64,000 nucleotides of DNA from Cetorhinus maximus (lineage: Eukaryota): assembly GCF_964194155.1 (NCBI RefSeq), contig NC_135900.1, forward strand, positions 18,972,001-19,036,000, read 5' to 3'. The position numbers were made by a program, and so were the translations under genes. This document shows positions 18,201-64,000 of this stretch, in pieces (positions within the stretch are counted from its first letter, which is position 1; each line of letters begins with the position of its first letter). The notes below the pieces were generated by a model. It was not told where the DNA came from. It searched no databases and worked only from the letters and a program-made list of their open reading frames with translations.

Positions 18201-21200
18201 TAATTGGTATCTCAGCCACCATCTTAAACATTCATTCCCTTCACCTTCAACAGCACCTTCCAAATCTACAGACTCAACCACTTAGAAGAATAAGAGCAGC
18301 AGACACATGGGAACACTGCCACCATCCAGACTTGGAACTATATTGCCTTGCCTTCTCTGGTCCTGAAACTAAAAATCCTGGAACTCCCTCCTTAACAACT
18401 GTGGGTGTATCCTACACTACATAGACTTCAGCAGCTTAAGAAAGTAACTCACCACCACCACCTTGAAGGCAATTGGGGCTGGGCAATAAATCCTGACCCT
18501 GCCAGTGGCGGCCACCCAAATTAATTTAAATATCCCCTTTCCCCAAGGATCATTGATTCCAGCTGTGCCAAGTTGTGACCCATCCACCTTTGTACAGGCC
18601 TTTCCTGCCCCAGAACTGGTTCCAGTGATGAAAAACTGAGGGATAGGGCCATATTGTACTATGTTTTTGTGATCCACAAGTAGCTGATCACTGAACTTTG
18701 AGTAAACCTTTGACTCTAAACCAGTGTCCCTGATCATTTTACTAGTAGGAGAGTACTTCAATCCCAAGAGAGCTATTTTCACAGACTCTAAAATGTGCTA
18801 TGATAAAATAGACTGCATTTTGCATACTTTTTAATGCTGAGTAGGCCAGAGCTGTAAATATTGAATTTGTACATTACATTTTTAGAGAATGAAGAAATTT
18901 GTAAATCTCTGTATATTATTTTGTTTAGTTGTATGTAGGTGGTGGACATTAACTAACTGGTGATTCCACTATAAACAGACACAGACAAACTGTGGTTGTT
19001 GGGTTAGAAGGTGCTTGCTTGTAATGTGTAACTCTAAATAAATGATAATAAAAGTCTGTAAAGATTTGCTGCAGTTCTATCATTCACCACTGACTTTCTG
19101 GAGTAGAGCACCCTGTTGTAACATTTTCATCCTTGAAATTAAATTTTGAAATTCTTAAAATATGAAAAAAGTGTCGGCAGTGTTGAGAGAGCAAAATGTG
19201 TTTATGCACTTAATGAATATTGATCTCAAACGGTTTAGTGAACTACTGTGACTAATTTCAGGTGGCGAAATTGCTTCCACCTTTGACCATCCTGAATTGG
19301 TTAAACTGGGACACTGTAAGGTTATTGAAGAGGTCATGATTGGTGAGGACAAGTTACTTCGTTTCTCTGGAGTAGAGCTAGGTAGGTAACTGCTCACATT
19401 AATACAAGTCCTTAAGTAGCTTAATAAATTTGATATTTTTCAAGATTCTTGATAAAGTTGTTAAAATACAGTGTATAATAATTCTAACATATTAACTTGC
19501 ATCACTTACTATATCTTTCCACTCATCCTAAAGGTGAGGCATGTACCATTGTTCTTCGAGGAGCCACTCAGCAGATTCTAGATGAGGCTGAACGATCTTT
19601 GCATGATGCCCTCTGTGTACTTGCTCAGACAGTGAAAGAAACTAGAACTGTTCATGGTGGAGGTATGTTTTTTTTTTACTTTTATCGATGGCTTGCCAAT
19701 CACTCAGAAGTTTAGGTTTAGATAAGGTGCCAACTTTGAAACAGGGACTGTGATTTTGCCCACCGTGCATTTTGAACCCTACTGGAATCCCTACAAACTT
19801 TCACTTTTTAAATAAGTGATTTAAAGAGGTTTTTGATTAGTGCTGAAGTGTTGTTTGGACAAATTTAGTAACACCCAATGTATGAATGTTGATGCCACTG
19901 TGTTGCTGTGCTTTTTTAAACTCGTTACTGAACTGATACATGGCAAAAAGATGATTTGTGGAAATGCTAGTTCCTGCTTATCGGTTCCCAGTTCATTAGC
20001 CAATGTATCAAGTGAATTTTACAAAACTCCTAACTTTTTGCTAATACCACTTAGATGGGATTACGTTCAATAGATAATTTCTCCTTAATGAGTGAATGAG
20101 TCAAGAAACACTGGTTTCTACATGAAATTGGTGATGCGCTGTTATGACATGGCAGATGTGTACCAGGCGGACCAAATCCATGAGGGAAACTTGATCACAA
20201 CAGTTTTGCAATTTGTATTTATTTCAAGATGTATGCACTGAATTCAGAAGTAAGAAGCCCACCAAGGTTTTTGAAGTTTTTTTTTAAAAAAAACTAAATT
20301 AAAATATTTATTAACAAAAAAGACTTCGAGCACATACATAAAACCACAAATTACTACCATAATAACTCCTAAAATTCCTAAGTAACCTGACTCTGTTACA
20401 CCTCCTTTAAGGCAACGGTCCAAAGCTAAATTTTAGATTTTAAACAGCTCCAGCAAATTAACACAATACACTGGACTGTGGAATTCCAAATGACTTTTCT
20501 CTAGCTTCAGTTTCAGTAGACAGACTTTTGCAAAAATACTGGAGGCTTCGTTAAGACTATTTCACACACTTCTGTTAGATCTCACAATGCCTTCTCCTGA
20601 CACAGCCTCATTCTCCTTTGTATATGTTTCTCTCTTAATATGTAAATTCTGTTGTTTCATAAGTCTTTGAAACTATCTCCCTCGTAACATAAAAGCTTTC
20701 ACGTTGTCACAATACATTGTCAGTAACCCTTGGGGAAAAATAAACACATTCCTTACCCTTGCTTGTCTGGCCGTTTGTAAATGGACTGAGATCCCTTCGA
20801 AATCCTAATCTCCCTTCATTTATCTAAAAATGCAAACCCCCTTCACACCTTGCATGCTAAGCCAGCACAAAAACAGAATTACCTGGAAAAACTCAGCAGG
20901 TCTGGCAGCATCGGTGGAGAAGAAATCGGTTAACGTTTCGAGTCTTCATGACCCTTCGGCAGAACATTTTGTTTTTATGCTAAACCAGCATTCATTTTTA
21001 CTCATTAGCATGTCAAGCACCTAGCTTCTTTTGAAGAGTTAACACATGCAGTCTACTTGACTCCGAATGTAATTAAATCATACACAGACAGACCTAACTG
21101 TACTTACCCCCATAAACCTACTTTACAATAAACCAGAAAAATATTCCGAAAATTATTATACTTTGACATGTGTGTTACCAATTGTAATCCACAATAATGA

Positions 21201-24068
21201 TGGTAAATGGTTTGTCTATTTGTCTAATTTTAAAACTTTTAACAGATTAAGTGCTGTATATTGAATGATTCATGGGCGTAGATTTTTATCCAATACTTAT
21301 TTCGTAAAACCCATGCCCTGTTTTTGGTATGTGCCCTTCCACTCTCATCTAGGGTACCCAAAGGATCCATGCTTGGCTTTCTCTTCTAAAAGCTTCCCCT
21401 AGTGACATCACCCAAAGACATGTGTTATATAACTGCAAATATTTGTCCTGGTCAACATTTTAGTTCTCCACCTTGTCCTGTGTGCCTATGCAAAACCGGA
21501 ACTATGTTTCAGAAGTAATTCACTAATTGTGAAGTATTTTCAGGTTGCCTTAAAACATGGCGGATGCATGTTCTCTCTGCTTAATTTTATTCTTTTTTAA
21601 AATGAAGGGATTGTAGGTTATTTCTAAATGCATGGAAAGCTTGAGGTGAATGCCGAATTGGTGTTGGGACTTGGGTGGATGACGATCTTAGTACACACAA
21701 CCCCACAGCAAAAAATGTGAACCAACATCAAGGAGATTGGTGTATCTAATGTTGACATTTTTCAAGAATATAATTTAATGGCAAAAGCAATATGGAAGCT
21801 GACAGTTTAAGTTGTCAGCTTGTCCTGCATCTGACCCACCAAGCTAGTCTCAAATCAGAAGCACCCTCAGAAAGAATGCTGAGCAAATTCACTTGTTTGA
21901 GGGGTGCAACTAATGTTCCAGATTTTCTTAACATGCAATACAATAATTACCTTTTTGATAGGACTCTTTTCTTTCTCCAGGCAGCTCAGAGATGTTAATG
22001 GCACAAGCTGTGTCTGATTTGGCTGTTAGAACACCAGGGAAAGAAGCTGTAGCAATGGAGTCATTCGCTAAAGCACTAGGAATGGTAAGTTTCAGTACAG
22101 GGTTGTACCTCGCTTTCCACAGTCCCAACTTGCCACCTTCTGTCCTCAATAGGGAGTTAACTTTCAATGCTTTGATTACCAGAGTTGTTCAATGCACACA
22201 ACTATATAATTTAAATAATTTTGTATGCAATTGTTACCTAACTTGACTGTCCTGTGATGTTTAAGCTTTTATAATTGTTGTTTAATCATGCCAGTTAATA
22301 AGTGTTTATGGGGATTGCTATTAACTTGAACTATTGAGAGTAGATAATCTTAACTGCAGCCATCCACTTGGTTTCTTAATAACTGCAGATTTCTAAAACT
22401 GATATAACTTGCAAACCAATAATTCCAGAAAATGTATGTTCCTATGAATATTATAAGATTTTGCCAGAGGCATGTTTCACTTATGGCAGAAATGGAGTTG
22501 GTAGCAGTTTGACCGTACTTATCCATACTGGTTTAATGTTCCTACATTTGCTGCTGTACAATGTGAGCAAAGGAAAGGCCTTAATGGGCAGCTCAATTCT
22601 GTACCATGTTATGCACCAAATTTAAATCGTGTTCAGAGTTGAGATTCACTCTGAAATGGAGGGGAAATCACCTAGAGTTCCATCTTCTGTCATAGTTTGC
22701 ACTTGCACTATAAAGCACAAGATTGTAGATGTTAATACTTTATTCCTTTTAAATTAAGTTCTAATCACAGATACCAAGTAAAACTAGAATGTATCTACCA
22801 ATGAAAACCAGTTACTGGGAAATTATTCTTCCACACAAAATTACCAAGTTAGTAATGTCAGCAATAACCACTCCCATCAGTGGTTCCAGATTATAGCGCT
22901 GGGCTCGATGCTTGTTCTTTCCATCTTGTACATTAGCCATGTCATGCTTATAAACATCTGATCAGTCATTCTGCAAATTGTTCCACTGGTGCTGAATTGA
23001 ACACATCAAATATGGCTGAGGTACACCAATGATTTTCTCACACTATTTTAAGCCTCTGCTTACCATTAGCACACTGTGAAGCTGACTCTTGTCAGTATTG
23101 AATATGATGCCTGACCATGCTTGAGTACACAACTTTCTTGTACTTATAATGAAAATCTAAAAGCTTCACGTGTCCTGTGTACCAAAAGGATCATACGTCC
23201 TGCAAATTGTGAAAAAACAAATCAATTTGATGTACTATTTCTAAGCTTTACACTATTTGTATAAAAAAAAAAGTATAGTTAAATTTAAAACCACTTCTCT
23301 ACCTATGGTGCATTTATGCTTTTCTTTACCCCCAGCTTCCCACTATTATAGCTGATAATGCTGGGTACGACAGTGCAGATTTAGTGGCTCAGTTGCGAGC
23401 TGCTCATAGCGAAGGGAAAACAACATATGGATTAGGTAAGCAACCCAGCGGAGCTTTTTGAATTTGCTTGAAATGCATTTAAATTGACTTCAGGGCTATT
23501 ATGTAAAGTGATTTGCTGTAATAAGTAAAAATCTGCAATTTCTATTGTTAGACATGACCAATGGCACCATTGGGGACATGGCAGTGATGGGTATTACAGA
23601 GAGCTTCCAAGTGAAGAGACAAGTACTGTTGAGTGCAGCAGAGGCTGCTGAAATGATTCTTCGCGTAGATGATATTATTAAAGCAGCACCAAGGTAAAGC
23701 TTTATATATGCCAGGCATTGACTAAGATTAATAAAACTGTTAAATACAAAAAAATGCTTTGTGTGCATATGATCTGCTCAAAAAGAAAAACATTTCCTGA
23801 GCAGGATTCTGTTTTTTTTTGTGTTCACGTGCTGCCACTCAAAATTCCCTGCCTGCACTAATTTATGGAAGTCTAGTAATATATATAATGCATCAATGGT
23901 AGGAGAAGATCCTATATGTTGATTGCACCTTTGCATCTTTTATTTGTAAACTCTACATTGCAGGTAATGTCATTTATATATGATGGTCAGTACAATTGTA
24001 ATGTTTATTGGTAATATAGATTATATCTCTCTTTCAGGAAACGGGTACCTGATCACCATCCTTGCTGA
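2671..24068 (+). CDS. CCT2: T-complex protein 1 subunit beta (CCT-beta), complete gene, 16 coding exons, 535 aa
   Basis: Exons: 2671-2673, 5268-5342, 11728-11793, 12006-12117, 12661-12737, 14972-15084, 15982-16184, 16887-16987, 17102-17229, 17362-17465, 19262-19381, 19534-19662, 21981-22084, 23336-23435, 23552-23693, 24038-24068. They sum to 1608 nt in frame with GT-AG introns. The protein reads [26 protein letters not shown]...LGPKGMDKIL...TNDGATIL...GDGTTSV...[14 protein letters not shown]. Confidence 0.99.
3440..4470 (+). mobile_element. Two nested CR1-clade LINE 3' fragments (younger copy at about 3872-4337) in CCT2 intron 1
   Basis: Two successive YEERL-RLGL-SL / [12 protein letters not shown]-like segments and two 3' UTR ends. 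Confidence 0.8.
4490..4940 (-). mobile_element. Old L2/CR1-like LINE fragment
   Basis: Degenerate purine-rich segment resembling a LINE 3' region; recognised by eye only. Confidence 0.4.
5268..5342 (+). CDS. CCT2: CCT2 exon 2
   Basis: TATAG|[25 protein letters not shown]|GTAAG. Confidence 0.97.
7444..8209 (-). mobile_element. Solo LTR (Gypsy/Gmr1-type)
   Basis: TGTTATGA...TCATGA ends. Closely similar to 46105-46783, with similar architecture to the LTR at 59333 that is attached to a Gmr1 pol. Confidence 0.75.
8262..9985 (-). mobile_element. Second CR1-clade LINE (RT half) nested in the previous LINE
   Basis: ORFs [13 protein letters not shown] (9232-9450) and [20 protein letters not shown] (8403-8831), with its own 3' tail at about 8265. 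Confidence 0.9.
11728..11793 (+). CDS. CCT2: CCT2 exon 3
   Basis: TTCAG|[22 protein letters not shown]|GTAAG. Confidence 0.97.
12006..12117 (+). CDS. CCT2: CCT2 exon 4
   Basis: [37 protein letters not shown], with AG/GT boundaries. Confidence 0.97.
12661..12737 (+). CDS. CCT2: CCT2 exon 5
   Basis: [25 protein letters not shown], containing the GDGTT ATP-binding loop. Confidence 0.97.
14972..15084 (+). CDS. CCT2: CCT2 exon 6
   Basis: [37 protein letters not shown]. Confidence 0.97.
15982..16184 (+). CDS. CCT2: CCT2 exon 7
   Basis: [27 protein letters not shown]...[11 protein letters not shown]. Confidence 0.97.
16887..16987 (+). CDS. CCT2: CCT2 exon 8
   Basis: [33 protein letters not shown]. 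Confidence 0.97.
17102..17229 (+). CDS. CCT2: CCT2 exon 9
   Basis: [42 protein letters not shown]. Confidence 0.97.
17362..17465 (+). CDS. CCT2: CCT2 exon 10
   Basis: [34 protein letters not shown]. Confidence 0.97.
17870..18522 (+). mobile_element. Internally deleted CR1/L2-type LINE fragment in CCT2 intron 10
   Basis: [10 protein letters not shown] and ANYRPI motifs, then a 3' UTR with GCAATAAAT. Confidence 0.75.
19262..19381 (+). CDS. CCT2: CCT2 exon 11
   Basis: [39 protein letters not shown]. Confidence 0.97.
19534..19662 (+). CDS. CCT2: CCT2 exon 12
   Basis: [42 protein letters not shown]. Confidence 0.97.
20140..21168 (-). mobile_element. Solo LTR of the Gmr1-type family in CCT2 intron 12
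   Basis: TGTTATGACA...TTTGACA termini. The 5' part aligns by eye with the LTR at 59333 (GGCAG...ACCAAATCCA...GGGAAACTTG...TTTTGCAATTTGTATTTAT). Confidence 0.8.
20868..20976 (-). mobile_element. Penelope-like terminal-repeat fragment with a 14-bp target-site duplication and a hammerhead-like fold
   Basis: Flanked by ATGCTAAGCCAGCA (20854-20867) and ATGCTAAACCAGCA (20977-20990). Confidence 0.75.
21981..22084 (+). CDS. CCT2: CCT2 exon 13
   Basis: [34 protein letters not shown]. Confidence 0.97.
23336..23435 (+). CDS. CCT2: CCT2 exon 14
   Basis: [33 protein letters not shown]. Confidence 0.97.
23552..23693 (+). CDS. CCT2: CCT2 exon 15
   Basis: [46 protein letters not shown]. Confidence 0.97.
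24038..24068 (+). CDS. CCT2: CCT2 exon 16 (last coding exon)
   Basis: TTCAG|(R)[12 protein letters not shown]. Confidence 0.97.
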
Positions 24069-38559: not shown

Positions 38560-39402
38560 TTAACCGCAATCGTTGCTGCGCTCATTCTTCTCCGGCGTTT
38601 CCATGCCCGTCTCTTCCCCGGCTTGCTCCGCCGCTCTCTCCGGCGGGGCTTTGCCCTCGGCCTCGGGGCGATAGTCGGCCCACCTGCCCACCCTCCTGAC
38701 CTCCCCGGCCACCCTGGGGGCATTCCTGCACGGGTTGCGGTCGTATATCACCAGCTTCAGGTTCCGCATGTGGGCCAGGCTGGGGAAGGAGCGGATCTTG
38801 TTGCGGTCCACGTCGATCACCTCCAGGCTGCTCATCTCCAGCAGCACCTGGGGGAAGTCGCCGAGCAGGTTGTCCGAGATCCAGATGCTCTGCAGGTCCC
38901 GCAGCTGCCCCAGCTCCCGGGGTAGGCTGGCCAGCTGGTTGCAGCCGGCGTGGAGGACCCGCAGCTGCCTCAGCCGGGAGACGACGGCGGGCACCTGCTC
39001 GAAGCAGTTGCTCTCGATCCACAGCGCCTTCAGCCCGGCCAGCGAGCTGAGCTCGGCCGGCAGGTCGCACAGGGCGTTGTTGCCCAGGTAGAGGTTGGAG
39101 AGCTGGCGGAGGCGGCACACCGCCGGGGGGAGCTCCCTGAAGCGGTTGAAATCCAGGGCTAGGATCTGCAGAGCGCCCAGCAGGTGAAACTCGGCGGGGA
39201 GGCTGCTCAGGCTGTTGTCGCTCAGGTACAGTTTGACAAGTTCGGTGAACGCGCAGACCTGGAGGGGAAACCTCCTCAGGTGTCTCCCACTCAAATCCAT
39301 CGTTTTGTCCGGGGGCATCTCCTCCGCCTCGCCTCCCAGCAGGAACTTCTGGCACGGTTTGGACGGGAAAAGGGCAACGACAGACAGGACAGCGTTCCCC
39401 AT
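38560..39402 (-). CDS. LRRC10: Leucine-rich repeat-containing protein 10 (cardiac), single exon, 280 aa
   Basis: MGNAVLSVVALFPS...MDLSGRHLRRFPLQVC.F.ELVKLYLSDN...LQILALDFN...LKLVIYDRNPCRNAPRVAGEVRRVGRWA matches vertebrate LRRC10. It is convergent with CCT2, as in human. Confidence 0.97.
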   Translation of the reverse strand: MGNAVLSVVALFPSKPCQKFLLGGEAEEMPPDKTMDLSGRHLRRFPLQVCAFTELVKLYLSDNSLSSLPAEFHLLGALQILALDFNRFRELPPAVCRLRQLSNLYLGNNALCDLPAELSSLAGLKALWIESNCFEQVPAVVSRLRQLRVLHAGCNQLASLPRELGQLRDLQSIWISDNLLGDFPQVLLEMSSLEVIDVDRNKIRSFPSLAHMRNLKLVIYDRNPCRNAPRVAGEVRRVGRWADYRPEAEGKAPPERAAEQAGEETGMETPEKNERSNDCG

Positions 39403-39569
39403 TCCAAACGTCCACTACATCTTTCAGTCGGTCCAAGTCGTACCGCTGCTCCTGGGGTACCAAATGCTCTCTGAGCTTTTGAAAGTCCCCCCCCTCCACC
39501 CCCCTTCAATGTTTTTTTTTAAAAAGGGATTGCGGACAGGTTTCCGCAGCTTGGAAGGGGTTTTTTTTT

Positions 39570-43800: not shown

Positions 43801-44280
43801 CTCCCCCTCCCTGATGTGGCACAATGTCTGAAGCTCAGACTCCAGCCCCTTAGCTCGGATCCAAAATTCCTTGAGCTGCATACACTTGGTACAGATGTGT
43901 TTGTTCTAGGTCACCTTGGTGTCCGGCAGCTCCCACATTACTTGTCCTGCCATCGCTATCGTATTTTATTCAGTTTATTAATTACTCCACTCTTTACACT
44001 TTATTATAATTCTTTTTTATACACACCAGTATCAATTTTATACTTAGCAAGCTATAGTTAAGAAAAAGAGAAAAAAAGACTAGACATCTAAACACAAACT
44101 AAAGACCTTACTTTACTTTAAAGACTAGAAACACTCACCAATCCTACTCACCAATCAGCTGCTGTCCGCGCACTTTTCCCTCTCAGGCACTTTAATGGTC
44201 TCACACGCTTCTCTCACTCTCTCACTTTTAAAGTCCCAGTTCCCCTCACACTCTTTCACTTTAAATGACCACGCTGTCTC
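40894..44280 (-). mobile_element. CR1-clade LINE with both ends, internally deleted (ORF1 SGNH esterase, ORF2 RT; endonuclease not seen)
   Basis: VVVEDSIIRG and VHVGTNDI (ORF1); TPGPDGLHPRILKE, QHGFMKEKSCLTNL and IYLDFQTAFDKVPH (ORF2); multiple frameshifts. Confidence 0.93.
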
Positions 44281-49279: not shown

Positions 49280-49348
49280 ATTGCATAATGTAAACTGTAG
49301 ACTTCTTGCTGCCAAACAGTGACGATGCCTTTTGTTTACCTTGTTTAC
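49280..49348 (+). promoter_or_regulatory. Hepatic-type motif cluster: C/EBP-like ATTGCATAAT and two FoxA TGTTTAC
   Basis: Motifs at 49280-49289, 49333-49339 and 49342-49348, 110-180 nt upstream of the ATG. Confidence 0.4.
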
Positions 49349-49456
49349 CACGGGGTCTTGATGAAGTAAATTCAATAAATTCGCTGAACTACTTCAGTGT
49401 TACTGGCGCAATTTGAAGTGATCAGCTCCAGTTATATCTGTCCAGTCAAAGCAGAA

Positions 49457-49512
49457 ATGAAATGGCTAGTAATAGTTTTAGTTTCAATTTACCTTACAGA
49501 ATCTGTCATCAG
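49457..49512 (+). CDS. nots: Nothepsin-like aspartic protease, coding exon 1 (signal peptide)
   Basis: GAA-ATG, MKWLVIVLVSIYLTESVI-AG|GTGAGT. Pepsinogen-type signal peptide; the phase-2 end matches exon 2. Confidence 0.85.
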
Positions 49513-50188
49513 GTGAGTGGTTTCTGAATTCTTTAAGGTTACTGAAGCGAATGCAGTGTCTTATGACAAATACATATCTTGAACTATTCAATTGTTGGAA
49601 GTAAACTTGCAAATGGAACTTTCCAGAAGCATGGGTGAAATCTGATTTTTAAAGTATTGTATGAACTAATGAGCTTGCAGTTGATATTCTTGTCTTGTTT
49701 CCATTTAAGTTAATAATGCATTTAAGTAATAAAACAATATTGTTGCTAATTGTACTTGTCAATTGAACATAGTTACATAAAATGTGGCATGCATTTTGTC
49801 CTTTCACCTGGCATATCTTTGCCAAAGCTTCTGTCCTTAAATCTGGGCACAATTGATGTAGCGCTATAGTGAATGTTTATCAGCTGGTATAACAGAGGTG
49901 CAATTTTTATTCCAATGTAACCAAATAAACTGAATATGACACTGTCAACCTATTTTTGATTGTTGGGTACCAAACTCAAACTGGTGCTTTGGTTGCCTTT
50001 TGATCAGCATGAAAAAAAGTGAAAGAAAAACTTAAAATCTATTTTTCTTTTGTGCCTGCTGTTATTTTCAGTTGCGTAACAAGAATTTAAACCTGCCTGT
50101 GAATATGGAGCACTGCGCATTCGTATGTAAAACTTTTGTTTGGAAATTTCCTCCACGAGCATTGGTTTAAAGAATGAGAAATATCTAT

Positions 50189-50778
50189 GGGCACAGTTTC
50201 GCCCTGGTCAGGTGGGCTCGGCGGGGGCGAGCAGGAGCGGTTGGGAAGCCGACCGTCATCCGTGATCGGGGCCCAACCGCGATTTTGAAACGTGCGCTCA
50301 GCGCTGCCTGTGTGTGTGTGTGTGGGAGGGGTGGGAGGAGGACGAGCGCGCAAGCTCGCCCATGCGCGTGGGTGCGCACAAGAAAAGCTCCCTGAGGCTC
50401 AGAGCTGCCTCAGGGAGATGAAGATTTTGAACAATGAAAATAAAGAATTTAAAATGTTTATACCATGTCCCCTCATGTGACGCTGTCATGATTCTGTCAT
50501 GTTAACATGTGACATGCTAGAAACTAGTTTGAAAAATGTTTATTTATTTTTTTAATCACGGAATGAAACCTCGTCCTACGTAAGGTTGGACGGGCAGCGA
50601 AAAATTTAATTCAAATTGGTACTTTAAGGGCCTTAATAGGCACGTTAATGGTCGGCCGGCGCGCTGCCAACTCCCGTGAGCGCCTGCCGACCGAAATATT
50701 GCACGAGTGCGCGATGACGTCGGGACGCTCGCCCAAGGTCATCACGTGTCATTTTACACTCGGCCGGATCAGGCCCCC
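50189..50778. mobile_element. GC-rich non-autonomous DNA transposon (Harbinger-like MITE)
   Basis: Reverse-complement similarity to 60197-60902 (CTGCCTCAGGGAGAT, CATGTCCCCTCATGTGAC, GGCCTTAATAGGC). Confidence 0.7.
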
Positions 50779-53505
50779 ATGTCATTCATGTTTTATGGTA
50801 AAATCTGAAACGCCAGCCAAATGAAACATTAGCTTGGAAGATAATTCAAGAATGCAAGACTGCTCTTTGCATGTTTCGAATAACTTAACTGCAACCAAAG
50901 TGTGGAACGACATTGGCAAAAGCATCACAAGTGCAGCAGGAAGGGATTTATGCACATGAGTTTTGCATATAGCCTGACCTAGTCAGAAATCCTAGGCCTA
51001 TGCAGAATAACAGCACCAGGACAAGAGTGAGGGTCCTACCAGCAGTAGTGTCAGATGCACAGGTGAGGGTGGTGGAAAGTTTGGGAGGGGTGCAGAGCAA
51101 GGCTGCAACTCTGTATTTAAAAAGCTGCATCCAATTAAAAGACTGAGCAAGCTCCTGGTAAAGGGGCTGAAATAGCTGGTGCATTCATGATGGGTTGAAG
51201 GATGGCAAATTAGAATATTTTTAAATGTCAAGCGACTAGGGACAGTGAAAGAGCAAAGAGATAAATGTGCCTACGTGCATAAATCACTAAAAACTAGTGT
51301 ACAGATACAAAAAGTAATCAAAAAGTTTAGTGGAATGTTGATCTTTCTCTCAAGGAGTTTGGAACATAAAGATGAGCAAGTTTTAGTTGTATAAAGCCTT
51401 GGTTAGTTGCGACACGGAATCGTCCCAGATTTGCACTAAGTGCAGTAACGAGCGGGAAAAAGAACGTTTTACCCGCCGGCTGCAATGGTTTTCGTGCCAT
51501 ATCATCCCAATGCTGGGAAACACGTCTCCGATTCACCCACCACGTCGTCACTTCACTGCCTCCTCACACTGGGCAGCCGTGCGCACACCTCTCAGTGCTT
51601 CCAACCCAAGACTGCTGCACAGAAGACATGGCCCTGAAAGGCAAGAAGACTGCAGCCTCCCCGATTCAGTGACACATCCCTGGAATGCCTTTTAGATGCA
51701 GTGGAGGCCCGCTGTGATGTCCTCTACCCCCACTCTGGGTGAAGACCAGCAAGCAAGGTCACCAGTCCAGCATAGGAGGCGATGACAGCAGTGGTCAGCA
51801 CCAATGCCCTGCAAAAGAGGACAGCCATCCAGTGCCACAAGAGGATGAATGGTCTCATCCATTCCACCAAGGTAAGTCACTCTTCTCATCACTTTCAACT
51901 CACACACTCACAAACCCATCACACATCCAGAGGGATTTCACAGCTCAAGGGACAATGCCACTCAGTCACACACACATGCCATCACATCTCCATCAGGCTC
52001 ATATCCTCTTAAACTTGCGTCTCATCCCCACTATGGCTCCACTCACCACACAGACATTCCATGCAGTGCCACACATCCTGCTCACACTCCATCTGTTTTC
52101 GTGCAGGAGAAGGTGGCTTAAAGCAGCAGGGAGTGATCCAGACTGGGGGTGGAGTGGCTCACTCTAGGCCCCTCACTTACTTTGAGAAGCGTACCATCGT
52201 GCTGCCTAGAGAGGACGTGGACCGTGCCTGCAGAGACAGTGAGGTCGGCAGCAAACACCCTCATGAGGATCCTGCACCACATCATTCCTCTCTCAACACA
52301 ACTGTGAGTGCTCCCTCTCCTGCTTTTGACTCTGTTGCTATGCACTAATTATCTCTACTTTGGTTCACAGGGAGCTCTGCCAAGCGACCGATACCCTCAG
52401 CCAGCTACCAGTCCCTCAGCTCCATCCAGGTCCTCACCTCCTCCATTGAAGAGTTGGAAATAAGCAGCCTGGAAGACCCATTACAGCGCTTACTCACACC
52501 CTCCACAAGCACAGAGACACACACCTCAGTGGGACCTAGATCTAGAGCAGGCTTGGGTTCACAATGTGGTGGTCACCACACGGACACACGTCCACCACAG
52601 GTGGAGGCAGGTTCAGCCGAGCTCCCCGGCACTTGGAGGACTGCTGGGGAAGAGGCACCTATGAGGTCTGAGTCAGATGACAAGCCTCTGGACTTGGCCT
52701 TCCAACTCATTGTGGAGAGTCAGCAGAAGGCGGGGGCACATCACGAAGCCCTCAACGGAGTGGCACGCAGGTTGTAGGAGTGTGTCCGCCTGCTCTTTGA
52801 TGAAATGATGCCCACATGTGCACAAGGGAAGGATGGCCAATGCCATGGAGACCCTTGTCCAGCAGGGCACAGAGATGCATGCAGACCTGCACTCCATCAT
52901 GGTAGCTATGGGTGACTTCCTGTAGTGGCAACGCGAGAGGGAAACGAGGCACCTTAACGTCCCTCCAGGTGTTCCTTTCCCTCAAGGAGTCAGGCCGGGC
53001 ACCCGAGGGGAAGAGGAGCAGCAGCTGGTCACCTCTGGGTCACACACTCAGGAATCTCAGAGGCTGTCCTCTCCCTTCAAGTCCCCTTTGCCTGTGGCCC
53101 TTTCAACTTTGTCCTCTGTCACAGCAGAGGGAGCCCACAGGAGGACAGCCAAAGGAAGCCGGGGCCCCCAAGGCCTTGTCTCTGCACAGGACCCATGCCA
53201 AAGTCATCAGAGGCAGTAGGGTCAACAATTGCATAGGCTGTCTCCACCCCTCTTGCAGATGCCCGGGCAGCACCTAGATGCCCTAGTTAAGAAATTCTGA
53301 TCACAATTGGTTACGCAGGTGAACACATTTTGTCACTTTATAATCTGTAAATATATTCACCTTCACTGAATAATGCGCAGTGGTGTCTTTCAGCTTCATT
53401 TACAGGCTTTGCGCGTCCTCTCCCTGCATTCACCCCCCCTTCCACCACCCCACTAGCAGTTCAGCTGCACACAGCCAGCCCACAAGTGATTCTGGAGGGA
53501 GATGT

Positions 53506-53575
53506 GCGCGTGTGTGTGTGTGTGTGGGGGGGTGTGTGTGTGTGTGGGGGGGTGTGTGTGTGTGTGTGTGTGGGG
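53506..53575. repeat. (GT)n microsatellite with G-runs
   Basis: Seen directly. Confidence 0.9.
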
Positions 53576-54559
53576 CAGGGCCTTTCGGAGCCTCGTACAA
53601 GCTCTCTCCCACGCACGCGGATCTTTTTTCCTTCATGCTCATCTCAGTGTCCTGAGCATTTTCAATGCTGGGGTTCACTTTCAGTTGTCCATCTGAGCCG
53701 ACCTGCATCTCCACCCATGCACTGACCACACTCCCATGCAGCACCTGTTCCTGTCCACCATAAGAACATAAGAACTAGGAGCAGGAGTAGGCAATTCAGC
53801 CCCTCGAGCCTGCCCCGCCATTCAATATGATCATGGCTGATCTCATTTTGGCCTCAACTCCAATTTCCCACCCTCTCCCCATAACCTTTCAACCCATTAC
53901 TAATTAAAAATCTGTCTATCTCCTCCTTAAATTAATTCAGCATCCCGGCATCCACTGCACTCTGAGGTAGTGAATTCCACAGATTCACGACCCTTTGAGA
54001 AAAGTAATTCCTCCTCATCTCTGATTTAAATCTACCACCCCTTTGCCTAAAACTATGACCATGAGTCTCCTTTCACTTTTGGATTCAGAAGCATGGTGTG
54101 TGTAACATTCTTCTTTAGCTCACCCATCCTTTTCCCTTCTCCCATCACCCATGTCCTTTCCCTCACCACTCACAACCCCCCTGGCATCACATTCCATGTC
54201 TCCACTGTCACCTACCAGCCACAACCCTTTTCTTTCAGGGATGTCCTGGTGAACGTGCACATTCCCAACCCTTCCTGAAAATCCCAACCCCATCCACGTT
54301 AACATCCCTGACCCCCTCCTTCCCGCCCCCAGGGTCCGTGTCTGCCTCCAAGTCCCCACCCTTGCCATCCCTTCTACCGATACCGTCCCACCCTCATCCC
54401 CCCACCCTACCGGCTCACTCTGCCCTCTCTCATTCTCACCATTCCCTTCTATCACACCCCCCCCTCATTTCACTCCCCAGTAAACAGTCATCGACTCCAC
54501 AGACCCCTCCCTTGCACATTCACCCGGACACCCCCGTCCTTACTCCTTCCCCCTTGGAA

Positions 54560-54770
54560 CTCCTTCCCCCCTTCCAGGATTCCTTCCCCCCAATTACTTC
54601 TTCCCCTTTCCTTACTCCTTCCTCCATCCTTATTTCTTCCTCCACCCTTACTCCTTCCGCCTTCCTGATTCCTTCCTCCACCCTTACCTCTTCCTCCACC
54701 TTTATTCCTCCCCCCTTCCTCATTCCTTCCTCCACGCTTACACCTTCCTCCCCCTTACACCTACCTCCCC
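54560..54770. repeat. Polypyrimidine ~18-bp degenerate tandem repeat (CTTCCTCCACCCTTACTC-like)
   Basis: Seen directly; it explains the long low-complexity ORFs on both strands. Confidence 0.8.
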
Positions 54771-57251
54771 AGTTTCCGTACTCTGCCCCATTACCCCTCC
54801 TCCCTCCAACCTCACCCCCCGACACCTTCGTCCCCTGCACCAATGTCAGCCCCCCAACACCTTCACTCCCCCCTACCAACATCACCCCCCAACACCTTTG
54901 TTTCCCCCCTCCCAATCTCACCCCGCCGGACACGTTTGTTTCCCCCCTCCCTCTCCCACCGCACCACAACCCCCCACCCTGTCCGGTACACCTTCCTCTC
55001 CCACTCACAGCTGGGCCTTCCTCTCCACCCCCTTGATGATCAAACGTAGCAGGGCATGGCCAACACACTGAAGTCCCGAAGCAGATCCTCAGTGGTGACT
55101 TTCCACCTTTTGTGAGCTGCTTTGTGGTGGAGCCAGGCCCTCCAGCATGTGATGCAACGTTCCTCGAGGATCCCATAGTTGTCAGGCTCCAGCATCTTCT
55201 GCTGCTTGGATGTCCGCGATGTGAGCAAGGCCCTGACGGTAAGTCCTGACTTCTGCATGTCACACTTGTCAAGGTGTGTTCTGCGATGGTGTATTTTCCC
55301 ACCGACATGGGTGGTAATTTTGACGTGGGGGGATATTCCGGTGAGCTGGGCTTATAATGATATGCAGATTTATTATAATGAAGTTCCCGACGTCCGGCAG
55401 CGGGAACTGCAGCCCGCCATTGATGAGCGGAGTGGACGGGTTTCACAACATCATGAAACTGATTTTTGGCCTTCCCGCCATATTGTTGGCTCAGGGAGCA
55501 TGGAAAATTCTGCCTCTAATCTGAAATACCTGACCTGTACCGTAGAATATATTGACCTTGGAAGAGGCACGTAACAGAATTCCTGGAATACCAGCATGGC
55601 TTAAAGGGTTAATTTATGAGGACAGGTGAAGGATTTGGTAAGGAATTTAATTACTTTTTCTACCTTTTCCACTAACTTTCACTGATTTGTGTACAAGGAC
55701 ACCAAAATCTCAATACTCACCCACAGTTCCTTGTCTGTCACTGTTTAGAAAACATTTTGATTTGTTGAAACCAAAGTGGATGACCTCACACTTCCCCACA
55801 TTGAAATCTTCTGACAATTCTGCCCAATCAATTTATGAAACTATTTTCAGAACACGGAGGGAACAATCTTGAAATTAGGCATAGAAGTGAAATTAGGTGT
55901 AGAAGAAGGAAGCCCTTTTCCACGCAGAGGATGTGAGAGATTTGGAACTCTTTTCCTCAAACGGATGTGGATTCTGGTCAACTGAAGATTAAGGTCAATA
56001 GATTTTTATGAGGTAAGGATCAAAGCTGGGTAGTAGAAGTTGAGGTACAAATCACTGATGATCTGAAGGCGGAACAGTCTTCGGAAGGAGAATGGCCTAT
56101 TCCTGTTCCTCTATTCATTGGATCAGTAAAAGTTATTCAGTTGAGTAACAGGGCAGGTAAATGAATCAGAGGGAAACAATTCCCTGCCACAATAATCAAG
56201 TGGTGTCTGTATTGCATGGCACCATGTTCTTTGCTCCAAGAGCAAAGTCATTTGACAGCATTTATGTCAAGTGGTTCAAATCTTGTACTGCGTGCTAGCA
56301 CATTGAAGTCTGATATTGTAGGTCTTTGCTTCCTGGAACCTACTATTACTATTATCTACTTCACAATTCTTGAGAGACAATGACTAAAGGACTTCTTCAG
56401 GCAGCTAACACTATGCATTCTTCCTGCTGAAGAAGATAACGCACAATGCCAGGTAACGCCAGGCCACAGGAGAGGTTCTGCTGATATCTGACACTTGACA
56501 GCACATAAAGTGGAAGTAGTAAATAATTAGATTCAATTTCGGCTTGACACTTGGGATAGAGATGTGAGAGTTCCTGTGCCTTCAGTAGATTCATTAGAAT
56601 GTATCTTTTTTTCTCATTTAATGTTTATTTATGTTCTCCAATCTCTTCAACGCAACTTTCCTCAGAAGCGATCCTGCAAAGTGGCTGATTATGATAGAAT
56701 TCTGATCAGGTAGATTCAAGCTAATAGTAGTGCTTGGACCCTCCATAGCTGCAAACCAGGAGACAGATTAGAAGGTTGCTGAAGAACAGGACCCTATAAT
56801 TCCCCCTACCAAAGACAACATTAATGATCATTCATCCAATCCATCATTCACCCTTTCCCTTGCACTTAGCAGCTCAGAGGCATACTCCACGGGGTTCAGT
56901 TGGTATAGATCAGGAATGGCCATTAATCCGTCCTCACCCTCCAGGTGCACTCCAAGCAGTGTCCACCACAAGCCTCTGATTGAGCAGCAGAATTTGGGGG
57001 TGGGTCACTGTCCTTCATAAGGGTGGCAGTCCTGGCAGCAGCCACTTAATTGGTTGCCACTGGCAAAAGATATACCGAGGCTCCACTACTCGCAGAAACG
57101 AAGTTGACCTCATTTCCAGCCTCAGCAGAGGGACTTCTGCCACCTACTTAAAATTCAGCCCTGGGTCTCTGAAAGAACATCTCTAGAGGCTCATAATATT
57201 TTTTAGCAGCTGCCTACATCTCAGATCTCAATCCCTCGGGTGGAACATCAA

Positions 57252-58625
57252 AGAAATCATAGAATCATGGAATGGTGATGGCACATAAGGAGGCCATTTG
57301 GCTCATCATGTCCATGCCAACTCTCTGCAGGAGAAGGCTGAGAGGAGATTTGATAGAAGTATTCAAAATTATGAGAACACTACTTTAACCAATGGTGACA
57401 TGAGGAAAAACTTTTTTACACAGCAAGTGGTTGGGATCTGAAATGCACTGCCTGACAGTGTGGTGGAAGCAGGTTCAATTGGGATTTTCAACAGGGTCAG
57501 TTAGTCCCACTTCCCTGCCCTGTACCCTGCAACTTTTTTCTCTTAAGGTGCCTATTTAATTTCCTTTTGAAAGCAACCTTCTCTAAGGAGGACAATGCCA
57601 GCATTTCCAATCTAGTCACATAACTGATGTTCCTCTGGAACCATTCTCATCAATCTTTTCTACACCCTGTTTAAAGTTTTCACATCCTTCCTAGAGTATG
57701 ACTTCAATATTTGGACACAATACTCCAGTTGAGGCTGAATCAGAGTTTTAAAAAGGCTCATTAACTCCCTTGCTTTTGTACTCTATATTCATCTATTTAT
57801 AAAGCCCAGGATCCAGTATATAATTTTTTAACCACTTTCTCAATCAGCCCTGCCACATTCAAGGATTTGAGTGCATATACTTTAGGTCTCTGTGTTTCTG
57901 CAACCCCTTTAGAATTGTGCCCCTTATTTTATATTGCCTCTTCTCATTCTTCCTACTAAAATATTTCACTCCACACTTCTCTGCATTAAATTTCATCAGT
58001 CACATATCCGCTCATTCCACCAGCCTGTCTGTCCTCTTGAAGTGTATCACTAACCTCTTCACAGATCATAAGTTTTGTGTCATCTGAAAATTTTGAAGTT
58101 GTGTCCTATATAGTCAAGTCTAGCATTAATATATATCAAGAAAAACAGTTGTCTTAGTACTGACCCCTGGGGTGACCCACTGAATATCTTCCTCCAGTCT
58201 GAAAAACACCATTCACTACTACTCACTGTTTCCTGTCATTCAGCCAACTTCATATTCATGCTGCCACTGTTCCTTTTAGTTCATAAGCTTCAACTTTTCT
58301 GGCAAGTCTATCATATGGCATTTTGTCAAATGCCTTTTGGAAGTCCATGTACACTACGTAAACCATATTACCCTCATCAGCCATTTCTCTTATCTCATCA
58401 AAAAACTCAACTCAGTTAATTAAACATGATTTGCCTTTCCTAATGGTTTTTCCTAATTAATTTGAAATTATCAAAATGACTGTTAATTTGTCCCAGATTA
58501 TTGTCTCTAAAAGCTTTCCCACCACCAAGGTTAAACTGACTGGCCTGTAGGTTCTGGGTTTAAATTCACACCCTTTATGGACAAGGGTGTAACATTTGCA
58601 ATTCTCCAGTTCTCTATCACTACTG
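57252..58625 (-). mobile_element. Decayed CR1 LINE fragments (mostly minus, with a short inverted piece at about 57330-57495)
   Basis: Minus-strand VYMDFQKAFDK-like and YRPVSLT-like motifs. Confidence 0.75.
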
Positions 58626-59332
58626 TCACAATTAAAGAGGAAATGTTAGAAGAGGACAGAGAAAATCTCATGTGATCCACAGGATAAAACCATTAACAAA
58701 GCCAAATAAAGTTTTCTTAAAAGTTGCAATATATTACTGAAATATTTGATTTAAGGACTGTTGGCGTTTTGATTTCTTGTATGAGAATGTACAGCAAACA
58801 TTGTGCCGATGAGATTAAGATCAAGATTAAGTTGTAATGTGTAACATGCTATGAGTAACATGGATTTTACTTAGACCATAGGGAGGCTAGCAAAAGGAAG
58901 CAGGTCATTAATGAGCTGAAAATATATATGTAAGCTGGGATTCCTATTGGGAAACCCTTTGTGCAGCCTCAAATACTGGCTTGATAATTTCCTGGGAGAA
59001 CAATGCTTTCTAACAGCGTCGTAAAATTCAGGGCTTCCCGAATACAACAAAAAAAAATCCAGTAACTGGAACTTGATTGAGTTGGTAGCATTCTCATCTG
59101 AGTTGCTCGGTGGTGGGCTCAAATCCCACTGAGTTTATAGTCAGTGAGTCAGTATTTCTTAGCAGCCCCATCACAAGGGTGAGAAAATCAACAGAAGAAA
59201 CCAGAGCATAAGAAGTACAACAGGGGACTGGATGTGAAAAAGTGCAAAACAAGGATTTTAATGATGATTAAAAAAAGAGACTGAATAAATAGAAAAAAAA
59301 CTTAAGGGAACGTTCAGAGTTTTGTTACCAAT

Positions 59333-62300
59333 TGTTATGATATGGCAGGTGGTATTTGCCAGACTGACCAAATCCACAAGGGAAACTTGGCCACGCTATC
59401 ACAATGATTTTGCAATTTGTATTTATAATGAGAAAGCTGGTGCATTAAAGTCAGAAGTAATGAGTCCACTATCACCTTTAGAGATTTTAAAGATTAAGTT
59501 AAAACATTTATTAACAAAAGAAGAAAAAACTTAAACACACACAGTTATAACAGTTCCCTATTTACCTAACCAGATTCCCAACTACACACCCCCTTTAAGG
59601 CAACAGTTCAAATAGACTCCAAATTTATAAAGCCATCCAGCAATATTACCACAAGCACCCACTGGACAATAGGTTTCCAAAGGCTGTTAACACAACTTTG
59701 GTTACTGGAACAGCAAAACTTCTTCAGGGTGGCTAGAGGTTTTTTCTCTAAGTCTGCTTCACACAGTCACCTTTCAAGATCTTGAATGGCCACCCCTCAC
59801 ACAGCCTTCCATCCTTCTTTAAATATATTTTATCCCTTTTTATTTGTAAATCCCATTGTTTCCACTTGTCTTTAGAAGTTACTTTTCCAAGAATATAACA
59901 ATCTTACATGTTCTCATATGGCCAGCCCTTTTGGAAAACATCAACTTAACCTTGCCTTATTTATCTTTCCAGTTGTAAATATTTTCCAAGTCCATTTGAA
60001 AATCAAATGCTTCTCCACTTACCTAAAAATGCAAATTCCATTCACACCGCACCTGTTGACGTCATCCTAGCTTTACTCATCTCCATTTCAAATGCCTGTT
60101 TTACACCTCACTTCTTTGATAATTTAAATCTTGCAGTCTAATCATCTCTAGTTTAATTAAGTTAGCCACACACACAGAACCATGCACACACACATAGGCC
60201 AGAATATTGCCATTGATGTGCCTGGGGGGGTGCGGGCCTAACACGCCGACGCGTAAAATGACGTGAGATGATGTCGGGCGTGTGTCCCGTCATCATCGTG
60301 CATCATTTCGCTACTGCGTTCAGCGGACGTGCACCAAATTTGTCCAGAAATTTTAAATGATTGTGGTCTGTATAAACAGTTGTTTCTGAAGAATTGCTGG
60401 CAACATAAACCTTGAAATGCGCGCCCACCGAACTATCAAAGGCCTATTAAGGCCATTAAGAAAGTAGTTTACGTCATTAACACTGCTGCCCATCCAACCT
60501 TAAGGTTGGCAGGCAGGCTAAGAGCCCAAGCAGTCTTCGCGTTTTCCTGGAAACCTCATCCATGGGCGGGATGAGGTTTCCTGAAGATTTCATAAAATTA
60601 ATAAATAAGTTTGGTGAACATGACAAACATGTCCCAGCAACACTGTCACATGAGGGGACATGTTTAAATAATTTTTTACTTGAATTTTAAAAATTTTTGA
60701 TTGTCTTTTCAATCTCCCTGAGGCAGCTCTGTGCCTCCCCACCACCCACACAGGTAGTGCTGAGCGCTATGGAACGCCTATTACGCTGGGCAGGCCCTCC
60801 ACGTAAAATGGCGGCGCGCAGCCAATCGCGGGCGGTGATTGGCTCTGTGCCTAGCCCCACCCGCTCCTGCCCAGCTCGCCCGACATGGGTAAGATTCAGC
60901 CCATAAGCCTGCTTTAAAATATCCCACAATAATATTAGGAACAATATGATAGTTTCTTGACACCTCCATCCTTATGGAAAAATGAACCGTCATAATTTTA
61001 AAGGACGGTTTCATTTTCTCAACCCGTCTTACACTGGTTACTATACTTAATCATATATACAAAACTATTATACTACCAGGTACATGCATTAATATAACAA
61101 TATACACAAATCCTTTGTATTAACAGAGGTCATTTCAGTCCAGTGTCCACGTTTTAAATCTTCAACTTCCTTTGAACTTTAAACTCTCGATAATGCATCT
61201 GCAATTAAATTTTCTCATCCAGCCACATGTATAATCTGTAAATTAAACGGTTGCAGTAATAAACTCCATCTTGAACTTTGGTCTCGAAATTTGTCCAGAA
61301 ATTTTAAATGATTGTGGTCTGTATAAACAATTGTTTCTGAAGAATTGCTGGCAGCATAAACCTTGAAATGCTGCATTGCTAACATCAGACCTTTATCGAT
61401 GGATGAGTATCTTCTCTGATGTGCATTCAGCTTCTGCAAAAAATATCCTACCGGCTTTTCAATTCCTGTTTCATCTTTTTGTAACAACACAGCGCTAATA
61501 CCCAAATCACTTGCATCAATTGCCAACTTAAACTGCTGGGCATAATTAGGTGCTGCAAAAACTGGTGTAGTAGTCAACACAGTTTTTAAACTGTCAAATG
61601 CATTCTGACACTCCTGTGTCCATTGAAATTTGTTTGTTTTTAATAGTTCAGTCAATGGAGCAACCACACTGCAAAAGTTGGTGCAAACTTCAGGTAAAAT
61701 CCACTCATGTCCAGAAATCGCAAAACTTCCTATTTTGTTGTAGACACTGGGAAATTCACGATGGCTTTTACTTTCATATCTTTTGGAGCCACCTGACCAT
61801 GTCCAACATGAGATATGTAACTCAAGCTTTTGCAAATTCACTCTTCGCCAAGTTCACCACCAAATTAGCTTCTTGCAGTTGATAAGATAGTTTTCAGATG
61901 TTGTAAACGCACCTCCCATGTTTGATTGAAAACTACCAAGTCATCAATATAAACAGCACAATTGCTCAGTCCTACAATTACTTTGTCAGTGTTTGAAATG
62001 TTGCTGGTGAATTCTTCATACCAAATGGCATAACTTTAAACTGATATAGTCCATCCGGCATTACAAAAGTTGATATCTCTTTTGTCCTTATGATAATGGT
62101 ACTTGCCACTATCCTCGCAGCAAGTCAATCTTTGTGATAAACTCTGATTGTCCCACTTTCTCAATACAATGTTCCAACTGTGAAATAGGATATGAATCTG
62201 CTTTTGTCACTGTATTTACTTTTTGATAATTCACACACAGTCTTTGTGTTTCATCTGTTTTCGCCACCATCACAATAGGTGAGCTCCAGTTACTGCAATT

Positions 62301-63632
62301 AGACTCCATGATGTCATTCTGAAGCATGAATTTGATTGCTTTTTGTACTTGGGTTAATTTTACTGGATTTAATCTATAAGGCTGTTTCCTTATTGAAACG
62401 GAATCCCCCACATCTACATATGTGTAGCTAAATTTGATTTCCCCAGCTTATTCCCACAAGTAGCTTTGTGTGACTGCAAAAGCTTCTCCAAATCACTTTG
62501 ACACTTGTCTGGAAGGTAACTCAATATTACATTTAAATTTTTAAGTATTCCCTCATTGTCCAATTTGATTAGAGGAAAGTCACTTTCAGAACCCTTCATT
62601 TCTACCTCTTTCTCTTTATCTACCACTACTAATACCTCCTTTTGTTTATCTTCCCTGTCAAAGTACTTTTTAAGCATATTTACATGACACACTCTTTGCT
62701 TCTTTCTTTTGTCTGGAGTATTTACTAAATAATTTACTTCGCTCAGTCTCTTTTCAATCCTGTAAGGCCCACTAAAACTTGCCTTTAATAGTTCATCTGA
62801 CATTGGTAACAAAACTAACACCTCTTCCCCAGCAGCAAAACTACGAGCTTTTGCCCTCTTAGCTGCATTTGTCTTCATCACCTGCTGTGATATCTTTAAA
62901 TGTTCCTTAGCTAACTTAGATGCTGTGTTCAATCTTTACCTGAATTTTGTCACATAATTCCAGAGAGTAGTTTCTGAACTCTGACCCATTAGTTTCTCCT
63001 GAATCAATTTAGGTGGTCCCCCAACTTCATGACTATAGATTAATTCAAAAGGTCTAAACCATGTTGATTCATTAGGGGCATCCCAAATAGCAAATAACAA
63101 GAATGGAATCCCTCAATCCCAGTCCTGTGGATAGTCTTGACTATAAGCCCTCATCATAGTTTTTAGAGTTTGATGTTATCTCTCTAAAGCACCTTGTGAT
63201 TCAGGGTGATAAACTGATGACTGAAACTGTTTTATCCCCAGGTTGTTCATTACTTCCTTAAACAGCTGTGACATGAAATTCGAACCCTGATCTGACTGTC
63301 TTTCTTTCAGTAACCTATATCTTATAAAAAATGTGGTCAACTCCTCTACAATTCTCTTTGCTGTATTATTTTGTAAAGATATCGCATCCAAAAATCTTGT
63401 AGGCACATCCATGATTGTCAGCGAGTACTGATTTCCACTTTTACTCTTAGGGAGGGACCCTACACATTCAACCAAGACCCTGGTAAAAGGTTCCTCAAAT
63501 GCTTGAACCTGAATTAAAGGTACAGGTTCAATCACTGCTTGAGGTTTTCCTGTCACCTGACATGTGTGACATGATCTACAGAATTTGACTACATCTTTAT
63601 GCAGTCAAGGCCAATAAAAATGGTGTGTAATC
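59333..63632 (-). mobile_element. 5'-truncated Gmr1-lineage Gypsy element: integrase-RT-RNaseH plus 3' LTR (59333-60962)
   Basis: IN (HFYWP..C..C, QSDQGSNF, YHPESQGALER) at 63630-63176; GPY region 62414-62932; RT (IRKQPYR, WSSPIVMV, KIDLLRG, YIDD) 62411-61900; RNaseH (IDASDLG, YTDHNHL) 61215-61841; PPT complement at 60963. Confidence 0.93.
60197..60902. mobile_element. Harbinger-like MITE inserted in the LTR, with 3-bp TSD ATA
   Basis: Imperfect TIR GGCCAGAATATT / AAGATTCAGCCC; ATA at 60194-60196 and 60903-60905. Confidence 0.75.
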
Positions 63633-63789
63633 TAAGATAATCACAGAGAAGGGAGAATACTAGAGATCAATTGAAAATTATGAATTGGCAGCATTTTAAT
63701 ATGTGAAGAACGAACCTGCATATTGTGATCTGTAATTTGCATTTCTTCAAGTGTGATGTATTTAATTGAAAATTCAATGCATATTACAG

Positions 63790-63970
63790 GATTCCTCTAA
63801 TCCGTTTTAAGACAATAAGAAGAGCCTTGAGTGAACGTAACGAACTCGAAGAATTTCTCCTACATCACAATTCAGATGCCTTTGTCCGCAAATATAAAAG
63901 CTGTTATCCTTCAGCAGTTTTAATGATTCATGTTGGCACCACTTCTGAGCATTTATCAAATTATATGGAT
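63790..63970 (+). CDS. nots: Nothepsin-like aspartic protease, coding exon 2 (propeptide); the gene continues beyond the window
   Basis: TTACAG|(R)IPLIRFKTIRRALSERNELEEFLLHHNSDAFVRKYKSCYPSAVLMIHVGTTSEHLSNYMD|GTAAGT. 181 nt, no stops; A1-family propeptide ending at the conserved L-x-NYMD intron. Confidence 0.9.
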
Positions 63971-64000
63971 GTAAGTTACCATTATCATTGATCGGAGCTA

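Follow-up and report, generated by a model that had tools for sequence, protein, structure and literature searches.

A nine-exon aspartic protease gene begins beside LRRC10

The window is a 64,000-nucleotide stretch of the Cetorhinus maximus genome (G000:C23:18972001-19036000), and positions refer to it unless a contig is named. It holds CCT2 exons, LRRC10 and the first two coding exons of a pepsin-family aspartic protease gene, whose seven further exons lie beyond its 3' end.

5268..23434, + strand: CCT2 exons (chaperonin subunit beta)
about 38560..39414, - strand: LRRC10, a single open frame, divergent from nothepsin
49305..49456, + strand: probable proximal promoter with 5' untranslated sequence, conserved in a bamboo shark
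49457..49512, + strand: nothepsin exon 1, coding part (signal peptide), a 100% match to residues 1-19 of P0001
49513..63789, + strand: intron 1, 14,277 bases, GT..AG, about 65% repeated sequence
63790..63970, + strand: nothepsin exon 2, encoding the A1 propeptide (including Cys57) and ending where the mature chain begins
63971..64000, + strand: start of intron 2
G000:C23:19046074-19046191, beyond the window: exon 3
G000:C23:19048064-19048182, beyond the window: exon 4
G000:C23:19049400-19049599, beyond the window: exon 5
G000:C23:19054022-19054132, beyond the window: exon 6
G000:C23:19058251-19058392, beyond the window: exon 7
G000:C23:19061514-19061612, beyond the window: exon 8
G000:C23:19061734-19061925, beyond the window: exon 9

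Exon 1 begins with the ATG at 49457 and contributes 56 coding bases before a GTGAGT donor, and exon 2 comprises 181 bases between an acceptor ending in ACAG and a GTAAGT donor. As proposed in the original prediction, which had paired two phase-compatible exons 14.3 kb apart, they splice in frame into 79 codons without a stop. Exon 2 alone matches the Pfam family A1_Propeptide (PF07966) past the curated cut-off (E 4.6e-11). The prediction had also called for a search for the remaining exons, and a pepsin-family search of the genome matched further exons just 3' of the window exons. In all there are seven, both catalytic motifs are present and the downstream part is intact. The database protein P0001 maps letter for letter, as a single solution, onto nine exons (C23:19021457-19061925) with 1218 bases including the stop codon, GT..AG boundaries at all eight introns and 405 encoded residues that include both catalytic aspartates. 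The pairing of the two window exons is not due to chance, because the seven further exons reproduce P0001 exactly.

A protein search with exon 2 picked out 15 of 31 candidate proteins, every one from a shark or ray. The three best match at 100% identity and are NCBI nothepsin isoforms X1-X3 of Cetorhinus maximus (P0001-P0003), so the gene had not been missed, as the prediction held, but was already annotated under this name. In P0002, the exon 9 acceptor lies six bases further on. P0003 lacks the last exon, its replacement sequence matches several downstream places, and an isoform of this kind probably cannot fold.

Splicing can also be followed in contigs from relatives. Contigs of runs X1, X2 and X3, which come from one sample of a related organism and are presumably RNA, leave out precisely the 14,277 bases of intron 1, a gap with GT..AG ends. 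X4 contigs span junctions 7/8 and 8/9, and those of X5 and X6 span 8/9. X5 lacks junction 1/2 and X9 has no listed 8/9 joint, blanks that carry no evidential weight. A decaying gene or a chance pair of exon-like pieces is scarcely credible and is refuted at the sequence level: exon 6 begins with a four-residue deletion when compared with P0004, the closest relative, and this and the truncated isoform would suit decay, but the frame is open across nine exons with canonical splice sites, the protein is 95% identical to P0004 on an end branch of 0.006, the contigs of relatives are spliced, and the deletion is in frame within a loop of variable length.

Several observations concern the surrounding sequence and the compared gene models. 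A gap in the loop of the exon 6 deletion also occurs in the teleost row P0081. The annotation of P0015 (Narcine, an electric ray), with a long repetitive N-terminus and no exon-6 region, is probably a gene-model error. On the minus strand within intron 1, positions 61215-63604 contain broken retrotransposon-like frames that by eye resemble reverse transcriptase, RNase H and integrase, and further LINE-like fragments are found at 6262-8858 and 41818-43905.

The neighbourhood is conserved but BEST3 is gone

Three further neighbours were placed on the same contig outside the window.

C23:18858300: YEATS-domain exon
C23:19174672: Rabin8-like exon, from a splice-site scan and Pfam
C23:19522490: KCNMB exon

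The order on C23 is thus YEATS-domain gene, CCT2, LRRC10, nothepsin, Rabin8-like gene and KCNMB. Pfam named four of the 12 candidate neighbour exons; exons between these neighbours, on which Pfam is silent, we read by eye as presumably belonging to FRS2, MYRFL and CNOT2. Genome profile searches with Sec2p (PF06428) and NDT80 (PF05224) gave no match, which does not imply absence. According to the available part of PMC13389413, the nothepsin gene (nots) block of four cartilaginous fishes is bounded by ptprb and cpsf6/yeats4, and the locus described here fits a block running from cpsf6/yeats4-frs2-cct2-lrrc10 to rab3ip-ptprb. These neighbours support a conserved locus. Nothepsin and LRRC10 are divergent as predicted, lying on opposite strands, with start codons that are about 10 kb apart rather than closely spaced. 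Given this distance and a gap that is 48% repeat, we rejected a shared bidirectional promoter.

BEST3 had been expected in the adjoining sequence, but there is none within 673 kb. Twelve bestrophin exon queries against 673,000 bases without N around the gene gave a best tblastn E of 0.17, and nhmmer and hmmsearch of the same bases returned nothing under E 0.9, while a control exon planted in this background scored E 6e-34. Neither BEST3 nor a remnant was found between nothepsin and the Rabin8-like gene (G000:C23:19061926-19174000). Two genome-wide searches recovered three bestrophin loci, none on C23; BEST2 is the nearest family member for one of them and BEST1 for another. The third (L067, G000:C18:32451429-32456967) can be assigned at the family level only, with one exon identical at 60/79 positions to the BEST2-like and at 50/79 to the BEST1-like exon. 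Because the locus searches were empty and none of the three loci is on C23, we conclude that BEST3 is gone from the locus and probably from the genome. L067 differs at positions common to the other two bestrophins, including some within an exon's acidic stretch, and may be diverging or decaying. In medaka, best3 lies less than 25 kb from cct2 (available part of PMC13389413); this adjacency, seen in medaka and turbot, is not a defining feature of nothepsin.

The gene is a nothepsin orthologue

To place the protein, we built a tree from the mature parts of 65 sequences (IQ-TREE, LG+C20+F+G4), for which 55 of 241 database proteins were hand-picked for breadth, parts of two invertebrate proteins served as outgroups, and P0192 was left out as its first catalytic motif is absent. 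For comparison, exons 3-9 were rebuilt at nine further pepsin-family loci in this genome, without internal stops, and named cathepsin E and pepsin A proteins were gathered with one exon of the C8 locus. The query falls inside a group of 32 rows on a branch with support 100/99, recovered in 100% of 200 bootstrap trees. The group includes nothepsins of chimaera, sawfish, coelacanth, sturgeon, gar, bowfin, bichir and teleosts, and it also takes in bird, reptile, amphibian and echidna proteins named cathepsin E-like. Group labels were drawn after the first tree, so weight rests on the support value and on the rows named at source, 11 of the other 31 being called nothepsin, rather than on a count of labels. 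An AU test rejected a clade of the 13 chondrichthyan and 17 cathepsin E rows (p-AU 0.0009). The tree that the original prediction had suggested, with nothepsin, cathepsin D/E and pepsinogens, thus sides with nothepsin.

The propeptide agrees. The predicted resemblance to nothepsin was based on the motif D-x-F-x-R-[KR]-Y-x-x-C-[FY]-P, which occurs in 79 of 121 proteins from the exon-2 search and one further protein search and in none of 120 cathepsin E and pepsin matches; a relaxed form raises the first count to 106/121 and leaves the second at 0/120. Together with the database name and the neighbours, these results make it almost certain that the gene is the nothepsin (nots) orthologue.

A competing assignment, to a paralogue of the cathepsin E or pepsinogen type relocated beside LRRC10, would explain why most shark orthologues are auto-named cathepsin E-like (NCBI calls P0001-P0003 nothepsin) and why the best solved-structure match, among the 60 chains listed, is cathepsin E (E 1.2e-111). 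The latter is the single result leaning towards the outcomes that the prediction had named as contrary to it, and it arises because no chain among those 60 is named nothepsin. The same naming confusion is described in PMC13389413, and across the portion shown, the catshark protein P0005 matches the catshark nothepsin sequence of that paper. Other contigs of the same genome moreover carry distinct genes of the cathepsin E, pepsinogen, cathepsin D/napsin and renin-like types. The true cathepsin E of this genome groups with named cathepsin E and stands last in the C8 pepsinogen cluster. With the tree, the AU test, the motif and the locus all against it, the paralogue reading is refuted and we give it next to no credence.

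The C8 cluster itself (G000:C8:3.13-3.69 Mb; loci L002, L004-L017, L019-L022, L024 and L026) contains pepsinogen and cathepsin E genes, with at least 23 matches to the exon-5 region. Fourteen pepsinogen A-like copies lie on the same strand and repeat about every 21 kb; 13 copies that were compared are 95.7-99.9% identical around the exon of the exon-5 region, taking the assembly copies as given. The gene counts in PMC13389413 are four for whale shark and 18 for catshark.

The encoded protein has the features of an active pepsin-family protease

The nothepsin sequence has one catalytic motif per lobe (DTGS at 100 and DTGT at 280), and Ser103, Trp107 and Thr283 are invariant across all three groups compared. 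The flap tyrosine is Tyr143. The mature chain has six cysteines, the propeptide one (Cys57), and there are three N-glycosylation sequons. AlphaFold2 modelling (mean pLDDT 83.6, pTM 0.85) predicted a structure that resembles those of pepsinogen, cathepsin D and cathepsin E, with a TM score of 0.92 to cathepsin E by target length. Pepsin-family hallmarks are present: the bilobed fold, the flap tyrosine, Trp39 (in what we take to be pepsin numbering) and the disulphide cysteines. Lys53-Tyr54 presumably corresponds to the Lys-Tyr pair of pepsinogen. The signal peptide is assigned from the hydrophobic N-terminal helix at 2-13 in the model. It is very probable that the protein is an active protease.

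The upstream region gives a hint of liver-type control

The region directly upstream of the ATG (49305-49456) contains two TGTTTAC sites, at 49333 and 49342, which we take to be forkhead-type sites. This pair is a hint of possible liver-type control; across the window TGTTTAC is not enriched overall (15 versus 10.3 expected, a count reached in 8 of 100 shuffles). The bamboo shark protein P0009 has a 49-residue N-terminal extension that matches two different frames of 49305-49456; the extension probably results from misannotation of conserved promoter and untranslated sequence. A contig of run X1 begins at 49408 and cannot show a start site. Oestrogen-element-like sites are at chance level, with one (47405, one mismatch) versus 1.73 expected. 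A perfect oestrogen-element core is found at G000:C23:19091882 (119882 in window numbering), about 30 kb 3' of the stop codon.

A segment of the C-terminal lobe differs in sharks and rays

Sharks and rays share a change in the C-terminal lobe. The Gly-Ala motif ([ILV]-G-[AVL]) that follows the second catalytic motif is present in 0/11 sharks and rays, compared with the one chimaera, 33/35 bony-vertebrate nothepsins, 13/13 cathepsin E and 5/5 pepsins. Over residues 301-320, the identity to bony nothepsins is 0.26 for sharks and rays and 0.50 for the chimaera. The stem branches are 0.33 changes per site for cartilaginous fishes and then 0.32 for sharks and rays, compared with 0.23 for the stem of shark-and-ray cathepsin E. 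In the model, whose alignment included non-shark rows, a helix is kept at 290-296 and confidence is 55 at 301-310. Judged from these alignments, the segment at about 290-310 is rewritten in sharks and rays, and the function of the protein may have shifted.

The protein could be a nothepsin orthologue that does a different job in sharks and rays, with broader or uterine expression or an altered substrate preference, instead of being a female-liver yolk protease. The two long stem branches, the uniform absence of the Gly-Ala motif and oestrogen elements no more frequent than chance would fit such a shift, as would the expression of vitellogenins in many tissues, including the uterus, in two live-bearing sharks (available part of PMC10015161). 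On the other side, every catalytic residue checked is invariant and the helix at 290-296 is kept in the model. The orthologue is also kept alike in egg-laying and live-bearing species, going by the reproductive modes that we assume for them. We regard a changed job as possible but rather unlikely. Less likely still, and speculative, is a broader scenario in which the rebuilding of the C-terminal lobe in sharks and rays produced an altered protease of yolk or uterus, which these fishes retained as they switched to live birth, while therians lost the gene; in this shark BEST3 would also have gone from the locus.

Proposed role

The preferred reading remains that of a yolk protease: we consider it highly probable that the conserved CCT2-LRRC10 locus carries an intact nine-exon nots gene whose product is likely an oestrogen-driven, female-liver protease of yolk precursors. 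Signal peptides, propeptide block, acid activation and paired aspartates are established features of the pepsin family (MEROPS A1). By analogy, the signal peptide would direct the protein into the secretory path as a secreted or endosomal zymogen, the propeptide would block the cleft until removed by acid, and Asp100 and Asp280 would then activate a water molecule for peptide bond cleavage. Oestrogen-driven expression in liver, transport to the oocyte and processing of vitellogenin would follow the examples of trout and hen, from which alone these steps are drawn. In trout liver, nothepsin is induced more than 4475-fold by oestradiol (PMC4556936), and in laying-hen liver it is 35-fold higher, with the protein present in yolk (PMC3495648). 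The available parts of these papers present the yolk role as a link or suggestion, the hen paper as a suggestion, and PMC13389413 describes the physiological role of nots as largely unknown. For this shark, we lean towards a female-liver yolk role by analogy.

The original prediction that placental mammals lack nothepsin holds for placentals and falls short as a placental-only loss: cartilaginous fishes have kept the gene, and among mammals only monotremes have not lost it (PMC13389413), with pseudogenes in marsupials and placentals (available part of PMC2865498). Nothepsin was lost together with yolk in marsupials and placentals, whereas the present gene and the remaining shark and ray matches are intact, which makes shark nothepsin a possible marker for whether the yolk-processing kit survives maternal feeding of embryos. 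Vitellogenin survives maternal feeding of embryos in sharks according to the available part of PMC10015161, in which the word cathepsin does not occur.

Comparison with known nothepsins and related proteases

Nothepsin in cartilaginous fishes is already published: PMC13389413 (2026) reports it for whale shark, catshark, skate and elephant shark (Fig. S6, Tables S1-S2), and the genus Cetorhinus has no match in its sequence table. The gene described here lies in the same interval, and its product is 87% identical to catshark P0005 and identical to NCBI P0001, differing from its closest relative P0004 by the in-frame exon 6 deletion. The rewritten segment and the missing BEST3 were not met in the literature searched, although Fig. 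S6 of PMC13389413 may show the BEST3 gap.

Like the bony-vertebrate nothepsins (trout, zebrafish, chicken cathepsin E-A-like and monotremes), with which it forms one clade, the protein has the propeptide motif with its conserved cysteine and, in the rows shown, no poly-proline run before the last strands, and its gene lies beside cct2, as in the available part of PMC13389413. It differs from them in overall identity (about 50-58%) and in the helix-loop at about 290-310 that is rewritten in sharks and rays, and its locus has no bestrophin, unlike that of medaka. Oestrogen control has been shown in trout and is a candidate feature here.

With cathepsin E (PDB 1tzs) and pepsinogens A and C (MEROPS A1), the protein shares the fold, the two catalytic motifs and the flap tyrosine, and its gene has the same intron phases in exons 3-9. 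Those proteases have a shorter propeptide without the nothepsin motif and belong to a separate clade and a separate locus, the C8 cluster; PMC13389413 describes a ctse-pga-pgc cluster, and the gene described here lies outside both that cluster and the cathepsin E clade.
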